NCBI RefSeq assembly: GCF_058153355.1
Contig: NZ_CM177019.1
DNA length: 64,000 nucleotides
Strand: one strand, 5' to 3'
Positions within the stretch are counted from its first letter, which is position 1; each line of letters opens with the position of its first letter. Both the position numbers and the translations under genes were made by a program. Of the stretch, positions 32,434 through 33,508 are shown in pieces. A model generated the notes under the pieces. That model was not told the DNA's origin. It ran no database searches and saw nothing but the letters and a program-made list of their open reading frames with translations.

Positions 32434-33508
32434 CCACTATTAATTTAGTGGTGGATACTTTGTCCAAAGCATCGGGAATTTGCCAGACGGTCCTGATAAG
32501 ACGCTTACGCTAATGACGCTTATTGTCACGCAGAAAAATGAATTGAATTTATTCAGGAAAAAGCATGGTGCTCGTGTCCAGGGGGATGGTTTTTTTGCCC
32601 GCTGTCTGTGGTCTGTAACTACATCAACGCAGGGTATAAGAGCTCATCAACCTGATGTCCACGTAGATACCAGCGTTCTGGATAAATTTAACAAACGAGT
32701 CGAGGAATTACTTGAACAAACGCTTGCCGGAACCACTCCCAGCGTTCTGCGCTTTTCTGTGGAAGCGGAACATCGCTTTGCTCAATATCAGAATGAAATT
32801 GAGCAAAGAATATTAACAGAGAAAGGAGGGCATGAAGCACTGCCGGGAATTTTATCAAAGCTACCTGAGAATGCGGTAAGGCTGGCAGCATTAATGCACT
32901 TTTTTTATGAATTTAAGGGTGATGAGATTGATGTAGCAACACTAAACTATATTTTTATGATTATGGAATATTATTACCAACAAGCAGTCAATATTTTGAC
33001 TGCCAGCCTGAGTTCCGATGAGGAGGACGCTAAAAGACTCTGGGAGTGGTTAATGACAGGCCATTTCTCGACGTCTACCTCAGTCGCGAAGTCAGAGATA
33101 AGACGTTATGCGCCCTACCAGCTGCGTGATGTAGTCCGCTATAACAAAGCGTTAAAATATCTTGAGGATATTGGTAGGATATATATAAAAAAGTACAAAA
33201 ACGGTAACGGTACTGTCAGTCAAGTGATTGATATCAATCGTTAATGTAAGATATGCATAACTACTCCTCTGCTTTTCCTGCTCCGAAGAGCAGAAATCGC
33301 AGGGGGGGGGGATTGCCTGAAAATTTTCCTGCATGAAAAGCACACTTTGTATCCGTATAGGAAAAACCAGACGACAACAGTGTAAACCTTACGGTTAACA
33401 TTTTAACCCAGGTCTGACGACTGTCAGGTTCGTGCTGATGCTTTTTATTTTCTGTGAAGCAGAATGCTTTGCTGAATGACATTTTGAGTTTCTGTATTAC
33501 AGGAGTGA

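Follow-up and report, generated by a model that had tools for sequence, protein, structure and literature searches.

A Ten-G Tract Downstream of a yfjI-Family Gene in Escherichia coli: Probable Outer End of a Conserved Stem-Loop

In contingency loci, homopolymers act as promoter spacers, as described for the poly-C/G tracts of opc and porA in Neisseria and for the poly-C tract of fim in Bordetella. Escherichia coli is proficient in mismatch repair, homopolymer contingency switching is rare in this species, and runs of G or C as long as ten are unusual. Polymorphic mononucleotide repeats in the non-coding DNA of E. coli are a described phenomenon. A first-pass annotation of a 64,000-nucleotide stretch of E. 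coli DNA, hereafter the window, had singled out a run of ten G residues (GGGGGGGGGG) and had suggested that this run is prone to slippage and may serve as a phase-variable promoter spacer for an XRE-family regulator gene. Comparing the window with related loci, we arrived at a different reading, which we hold to be probable but far from certain: a conserved stem-loop lies at the end of the upstream yfjI-family gene, and the run appears to be its slippage-expanded outer end, not a promoter switch for the XRE gene.

The tract is present in the intergenic region at exactly 33302-33311 on the + strand. There is no other G or C homopolymer of at least seven nucleotides in the 64-kb window, and dinucleotide-preserving shuffles of the window gave a mean of 0.03 G10 matches, with any match in 1 of 100 shuffles. 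The order of elements reported previously, namely a yfjI-like gene, a hairpin, the tract, and an XRE gene about 200 bp further on, is also correct, with the yfjI stop codon at 33244, the hairpin at 33278-33293, and the XRE start codon (ATG) at 33512, which is 200 bp from the end of the tract.

The locus is part of a CP4-57-like island integrated at ssrA. Its gene order is as in strain R32_14_1F, with cbtA/yeeU, DUF987, radC, and DUF932 genes on one strand and an inovirus-Gp2-like yfjJ, yfjI, and an HTH gene on the other strand; past the HTH gene there follow genes for two unannotated proteins, a WYL regulator, and a GTPase. Of 5426 complete E. coli genomes, only 6 contained the intergenic region in which the tract lies. 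The yfjI gene of the window is interrupted by an IS66-family element with inverted repeats (GTAAGCG) at its termini and a target duplication of 8 bp (GCTAATGA). None of the six complete E. coli relatives has this insertion, which is common only to the window and one further assembly, L012. The surrounding features of the island are:

30040-32508, - strand: IS66-family insertion sequence with three transposase-related ORFs (142, 115, and 523 aa)
32509-33244, + strand: 3' portion of the yfjI-family gene (DUF3987), its 5' side cut off by the IS insertion; intact relatives have 470 aa
47373-48614: integrase gene
48819-49181: tmRNA gene (ssrA)

The short hairpin CTGCTC/GAGCAG that had been noted upstream of the tract is present at 33278-33293, but it is only the inner third of a longer stem-loop, which starts 19 nt past the yfjI stop codon in the window and has the six leading Gs of the tract as the distal end of its 3' arm:

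33264-33307, + strand: stem-loop after yfjI with 20-pair arms; 5' arm 33264-33283 (CTCCTCTGCTTTTCCTGCTC), loop 33284-33287 (CGAA), 3' arm 33288-33307 (GAGCAGAAATCGCAGGGGGG)
33302-33311, + strand: G10 homopolymer; 33302-33307 pair with CTCCTC at 33264-33269, and the last four Gs lie beyond the ancestral stem

The stem of the window lineage is degenerate: an internal loop separates nine outer pairs, two of them G.U, from six inner pairs, and in the decayed middle TTTTC stands opposite AAATC. Its RNA fold was calculated at -30 kcal/mol (z -2.6). The same site of strain FEX669 (L004) holds a perfect palindrome with 23-bp arms, TACCCCTCTGCTTTCACTGCTCC GG GGAGCAGTGAAAGCAGAGGGGTA, with an RNA minimum free energy of -45 kcal/mol (z -7.9). 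Altogether, the stem is fully Watson-Crick paired over 15-23 bp, with no wobble pair, in three lineages (L004, L040, and L043). The outer G-run of the 3' arm pairs with CCCCTC or CTCCTC. The loop sequence varies (CGAA, CGCA, CGGG, CGTA, CCAG, or CTAG). A scan of positions 32400-34400 against Rfam, with E values up to 1, matched no family.

To collect relatives, we used YfjI protein homologues together with the contigs encoding them. The core of the hairpin, CTGC..CTGCT / AGCAG..GCAG, was present 14-20 nt past the yfjI stop codon in every relative examined, across a range of YfjI protein identity from 97 to 51%. These relatives include L016 to L021 (75-89% identity) as well as L040, L043, L044, and L045 (51-56% identity; E. 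coli, Serratia, and Budvicia), with Serratia fonticola and Budvicia aquatica among the distant hairpin-bearing relatives. L019 and L020 contain a different downstream cargo and no XRE gene; they retain the hairpin with a G7 run, and the gene that follows hairpin and run is convergent. Because the hairpin is retained in these two loci without XRE and is found after yfjI in all relatives, it is an element of the yfjI 3' end, independent of the XRE gene. It marks the border between a conserved backbone and exchangeable cargo, and the sequence directly after it is not conserved between cargo types. Linkage of the hairpin to yfjI is invariable, and usually there is also an upstream YagK_YfjJ_C gene.

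A covariance model of the hairpin identified exactly one copy per locus, always after yfjI, with no second copy in the window. Among 5426 E. coli genomes, the palindrome itself was matched at no other locus, and at this locus in 4 of them. We rejected a dispersed repeat of the REP type based on this locus specificity and on the single copy per locus. The covariance model detected no hairpin in CP4-57 of E. coli K-12, the YfjI protein of which is only 30% identical and is encoded in a different gene order, and K-12 was for these reasons rejected as a model for the element. Searches of viral contigs with a degenerate hairpin pattern and the YfjI protein yielded no relatives, and a distant-mode search of a plasmid collection yielded no match. 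Nothing directly usable was found in the literature on yfjI or on simple sequence repeat (SSR) polymorphism in E. coli. The stem-loop is previously undescribed and functionally unremarkable in appearance; lacking a U-tract and situated at the border between backbone and cargo, it could guide work on the transcription or replication of these islands.

Across nine lineages, RNAalifold returned 18 consensus pairs, 11 of which show compensatory changes on both sides, and co-variation extends to middle segments (TTTCA/TGAAA, TGTTT/AAACA, and GATT/AATC). Among 14 closer sequences, 86% of the pair cells are standard pairs, compared to 47-66% when the partners were slid against one another. The element thus combines compensatory pairing across diverged homologues with a fixed place relative to yfjI, as is typical of a conserved structured RNA. 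Where only one partner has changed, the + strand shows U.G at seven pair positions and C.A at one, in a set of few and related sequences. Scores of the covariance model were 45-65 bits on the + strand versus 23-42 bits on the minus strand. The wobble asymmetry, the higher + strand scores, and the fixed distance from the stop codon favor a structure of the sense transcript, and taken together with the covariation they lead us to infer an RNA-level role of the hairpin on the yfjI transcript.

The perfect Watson-Crick stems of L004, L040, and L043, which have no U-tract, are equally compatible with a palindrome acting at the DNA level, for example as an origin or a single-strand hairpin signal for YfjJ and YfjI after excision of the island, in which case the G-run would merely be an outer arm. 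YfjJ resembles the inovirus gpII initiator, and YfjI is a helicase-like DUF3987 protein of a type sometimes fused to Toprim, with Toprim domains also present in distant DUF3987 homologues. In SaPI/PICI satellites, the origin is located just 3' of rep. The invariable linkage of the hairpin to yfjI and its usual association with a YagK_YfjJ_C gene would be in agreement with such a role. However, a spacing of 14-20 nt from the stop codon fits a transcript element better, the imperfect stems are wobble-compatible on the sense strand only, and model scores are far higher on the + strand. Moreover, neither iterons nor a conserved AT-rich flank are apparent at the hairpin, and the sequence following it is not conserved between cargo types. 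There is a single palindrome, and a search for the arm motifs elsewhere in the window gave nothing past chance-quality matches. Rolling-circle nick sites usually reside in a hairpin loop, and the loop is variable in sequence across lineages here. Overall, we consider a DNA-level signal unlikely.

Returning to a stem-loop on the yfjI transcript, there are similarities to two known kinds of element. As in Rho-independent terminators, a GC-rich stem-loop on the sense strand directly follows the last gene of an operon, 14-20 nt past its stop codon, and it shows compensatory changes. Unlike in these terminators, all nine lineages lack a U-tract 3' of the stem (2-4 T within the first 8 nt, where a U-tract would have about 5 or more), and the stem of up to 23 bp is much longer than is typical of terminators. 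T-tail scores were between 1.6 and 3.1 in all lineages, compared to 5.75 for a T8 tail, and a terminator scan called no intrinsic terminator at the hairpin. Given the lack of a U-tract in every lineage, the hairpin is not a canonical intrinsic terminator. Similar to the REP/BIME elements of E. coli, it is a stable sense-strand hairpin just past a coding region, without a U-tract, which could block 3'-5' exonucleases. It differs from REP/BIME in that it is single-copy and locus-specific and has no sequence similarity to REP. In ssrA/CP4-57-like islands, yfjI-family genes are thus followed by a conserved, covarying stem-loop devoid of a U-tract. This stem-loop probably forms transcript 3' ends or blocks exonucleases, perhaps with Rho-dependent termination farther downstream, and would end the backbone operon just before the variable cargo.

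The earlier annotation had proposed that tract length be compared among related strains. It is not fixed: besides G6, G7, G8, and G10, there are interrupted forms from GAG3 to GAG6. Among 38 related loci, we observed the following alleles:

GAG3T: L005, L006, and L021
GAG4T: L004
GAG6: L003
G6T: 9 loci (8 close relatives and L016)
G6AA: 2 loci
G7T: 9 loci
G7C: 2 loci
G8T: 2 loci among the matches listed, and 22 similar places
G8: 5 loci
G8C: 2 loci
G10: L012, and the window itself

In two cases, loci with identical 1180-bp flanks differ in run length alone (G8 versus G10, and G7T versus G6T), and the tract is therefore a genuine slippage hotspot, as had been supposed. Within a haplotype, length is mostly stable, with G7T in 9 of 10 assemblies and G6T in 7 of 7. 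Over 5.1 kb, 10 substitutions and 2 indels distinguish the window from its nearest relative, and both indels are homopolymer changes, from G8 to G10 in the tract and from T6 to T5 at 35230-35235. At the latter site, the window has T5 and every relative has T6. On the minus strand, the T5 allele causes a frameshift affecting approximately the last 9 codons of the WYL/HTH regulator and an extension of the protein, so that its C terminus reads ..HRSYKNIAHQIKSINRGAAS as opposed to ..HRSYKKYCSSDKEY.

How could such a run have arisen? In the sense RNA, the purine arm GCAG(A/G)GGGG would pair with the pyrimidine arm C(C/U)C(C/U)UCUGC. The ancestral 3' arm was presumably interrupted, with GCAGAGGGG opposite CCCCTCTGC. 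Since either C or U can be the pairing partner of G, the stem would tolerate C-to-U changes on its 5' side and A-to-G changes on its 3' side, and the origin of the G-run can be explained by this property. Changes from U-A to U.G and from C-G to U.G may have converted GAGGGG into an uninterrupted run of G6 to G8, which would be prone to replication slippage and would now be of strain-dependent length. The run would then have grown from G8 to G10 in a clone that also gained the IS66 insertion in yfjI. In L045 (Budvicia aquatica), the hairpin after yfjI, at 4040-4092, independently ends in G6, paired to CCCCCU, and G-rich 3' ends may thus be a recurrent outcome for the yfjI hairpin. The extra Gs are most likely neutral.

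The tract is similar to the mononucleotide repeats known from E. coli in that it is an intergenic run with inter-strain length polymorphism and no demonstrated function. It is dissimilar in that its origin is traceable to drift in a hairpin arm. As such, G10 is an ordinary polymorphic homopolymer and at most a fine-scale strain marker for a rare island. The locus illustrates how a hairpin arm that drifts under tolerance of wobble pairs can yield a homopolymer as a by-product, and it cautions that not every long G-run is a contingency switch.

A functional role of tract length was also considered. If the hairpin were a weak terminator or attenuator, the length of the G-run would set the distance between stem and tail and thereby tune read-through from yfjJ-yfjI into XRE. 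XRE and yfjI are co-directional, we found no strong promoter for XRE, and run length is polymorphic. Counted after six paired Gs, the T-tail score decreases with the number of Gs, from 3.09 (G6T) via 2.45 (G7T) and about 2.0 (G8) to 1.62 (G10). Against this, the tail is weak in every allele, leaving little termination to modulate, length is stable per haplotype, and hairpin and G-run remain where a convergent gene and not XRE comes next. In the window, yfjI is already interrupted by the IS element, and upstream transcription is probably disturbed. Tunable read-through is thus decidedly improbable in our assessment, and it is similarly unlikely that the extra unpaired Gs slightly raise read-through into XRE. 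If the hairpin were either a cis site of a YfjJ/YfjI replication or transfer module or a slippage-tunable gate to the cargo, then the length of the G-run would affect replication of the island or expression of its cargo, and we would give this pair of possibilities little credence.

The proposal of a phase-variable promoter spacer places the G-run in or just upstream of the XRE promoter, with slippage switching XRE on or off. The relevant features are:

33470-33511, + strand: candidate XRE promoter/operator and Shine-Dalgarno block, the only upstream block conserved with L021
33512-33790, + strand: XRE/Cro-C1-type HTH gene (92 aa, Pfam HTH_26), with which the variable cargo module begins

In common with SSR contingency loci, the tract is a long non-coding G/C homopolymer, 200 bp upstream of XRE, and differs in length among close isolates through slippage. 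By hand alignment, the best promoter-like pair near the tract is ATCGCA-17-GAAAAT, a very weak match (7/12) that acquires its optimal spacing of 17 nt at G10. In contrast to contingency loci, the tract is neither between -35 and -10 hexamers nor beside a recognizable promoter: no sigma-70-like hexamer pair was called around it on either strand, and no consensus XRE promoter was called. Instead, it resides in the stem-loop of the upstream gene, remains in L019 and L020 without its supposed target, and has the same consensus length in most assemblies of a haplotype, unlike a fast-switching contingency locus. In L021, the most distant XRE-bearing relative compared, the hairpin and the 33470-33511 block are both kept, and the region between the tract and this block, which begins about 160 bp downstream of the tract, is not conserved. 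Upstream of XRE, this block appears to be the likeliest place for a promoter/operator and a Shine-Dalgarno site. A role of the tract as a promoter spacer for XRE is consequently very hard to maintain, and we assign it only a slight chance. An exact 25-mer from the conserved XRE-upstream block had no matches among metagenome and genome contigs.

Homopolymer miscalls are common in long-read assemblies, and the window also deviates from all relatives at the second homopolymer (T5 instead of T6), but a sequencing or assembly error with G8, as in the nearest relatives, as the true allele is highly improbable, since L012 (Logan SRR31441161), a separate assembly, repeats G10 as well as T5 and matches the window at 100% identity across 4282 bp, and since the other length alleles (G6, G7, and G8) recur in many independent assemblies. 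The L012 contig ends at the IS junction, and L012 may represent the same clone or isolate as the window.

Several further observations concern the region between the tract and XRE. On the minus strand, a promoter-like sequence, CTGACA-16-TAAAAT (33427-33400, 10/12 matches), faces left, towards the yfjI 3' end with its hairpin, and could be the source of an antisense transcript. There are 3 such sites, which is not significant compared to 1.9 expected in shuffles, and this one is poorly or partly conserved (L016, L017, and L021). Short inverted or direct repeats at 33413-33505 (CTGAC-GACT-GTCAG, TTCTG-TGAAG-CAGAA, and CTGTA-T-TACAG), and ATGACA repeated at approximately 20 bp in relatives, look by eye like operator sites for XRE autoregulation. 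Small ORFs across the tract (27 aa on the + strand, 63 and 73 aa on the minus strand) were rejected as genes, given that their frame shifts with each allele and that they have no ribosome-binding sites. A block of about 150 bp (33365-33510) that is 100% conserved among E. coli strains was considered as a special non-coding element and is explained by a mosaic boundary at 33365-33400. To the left of this boundary, yfjI and the hairpin are about 80% identical between two groups of E. coli; to the right, the XRE cargo is 95-99% identical. This jump in identity indicates that the cargo module has been exchanged by recombination independently of the backbone.

The cargo of the window, between yfjI and the GTPase, occupies 33512-37105 and comprises five genes, encoding the XRE HTH protein, a 239-aa protein, a 156-aa protein, the WYL regulator, and a YfjP-like GTPase. 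Neither the 239-aa nor the 156-aa protein matched a Pfam or PADLOC family; the former is a predicted lipoprotein (LTGC lipobox), and the latter has a signal peptide. The GTPase gave weak LeoA-like matches. In L019 and L020, a 261-aa protein and a 336-aa GTPase are encoded instead, and because of this different gene set the slot between yfjI and the GTPase can be viewed as an exchangeable cargo hotspot. An apparent second variable region adjoins the integrase gene, at 39674-47372 of the window and 41269-45433 of L014, where the window and its closest complete relative differ in their large genes. In the window, it contains an ORF of 1283 aa followed by ORFs of 669 and 223 aa, and in R32_14_1F there are two hypothetical proteins of approximately 1250-1280 aa.
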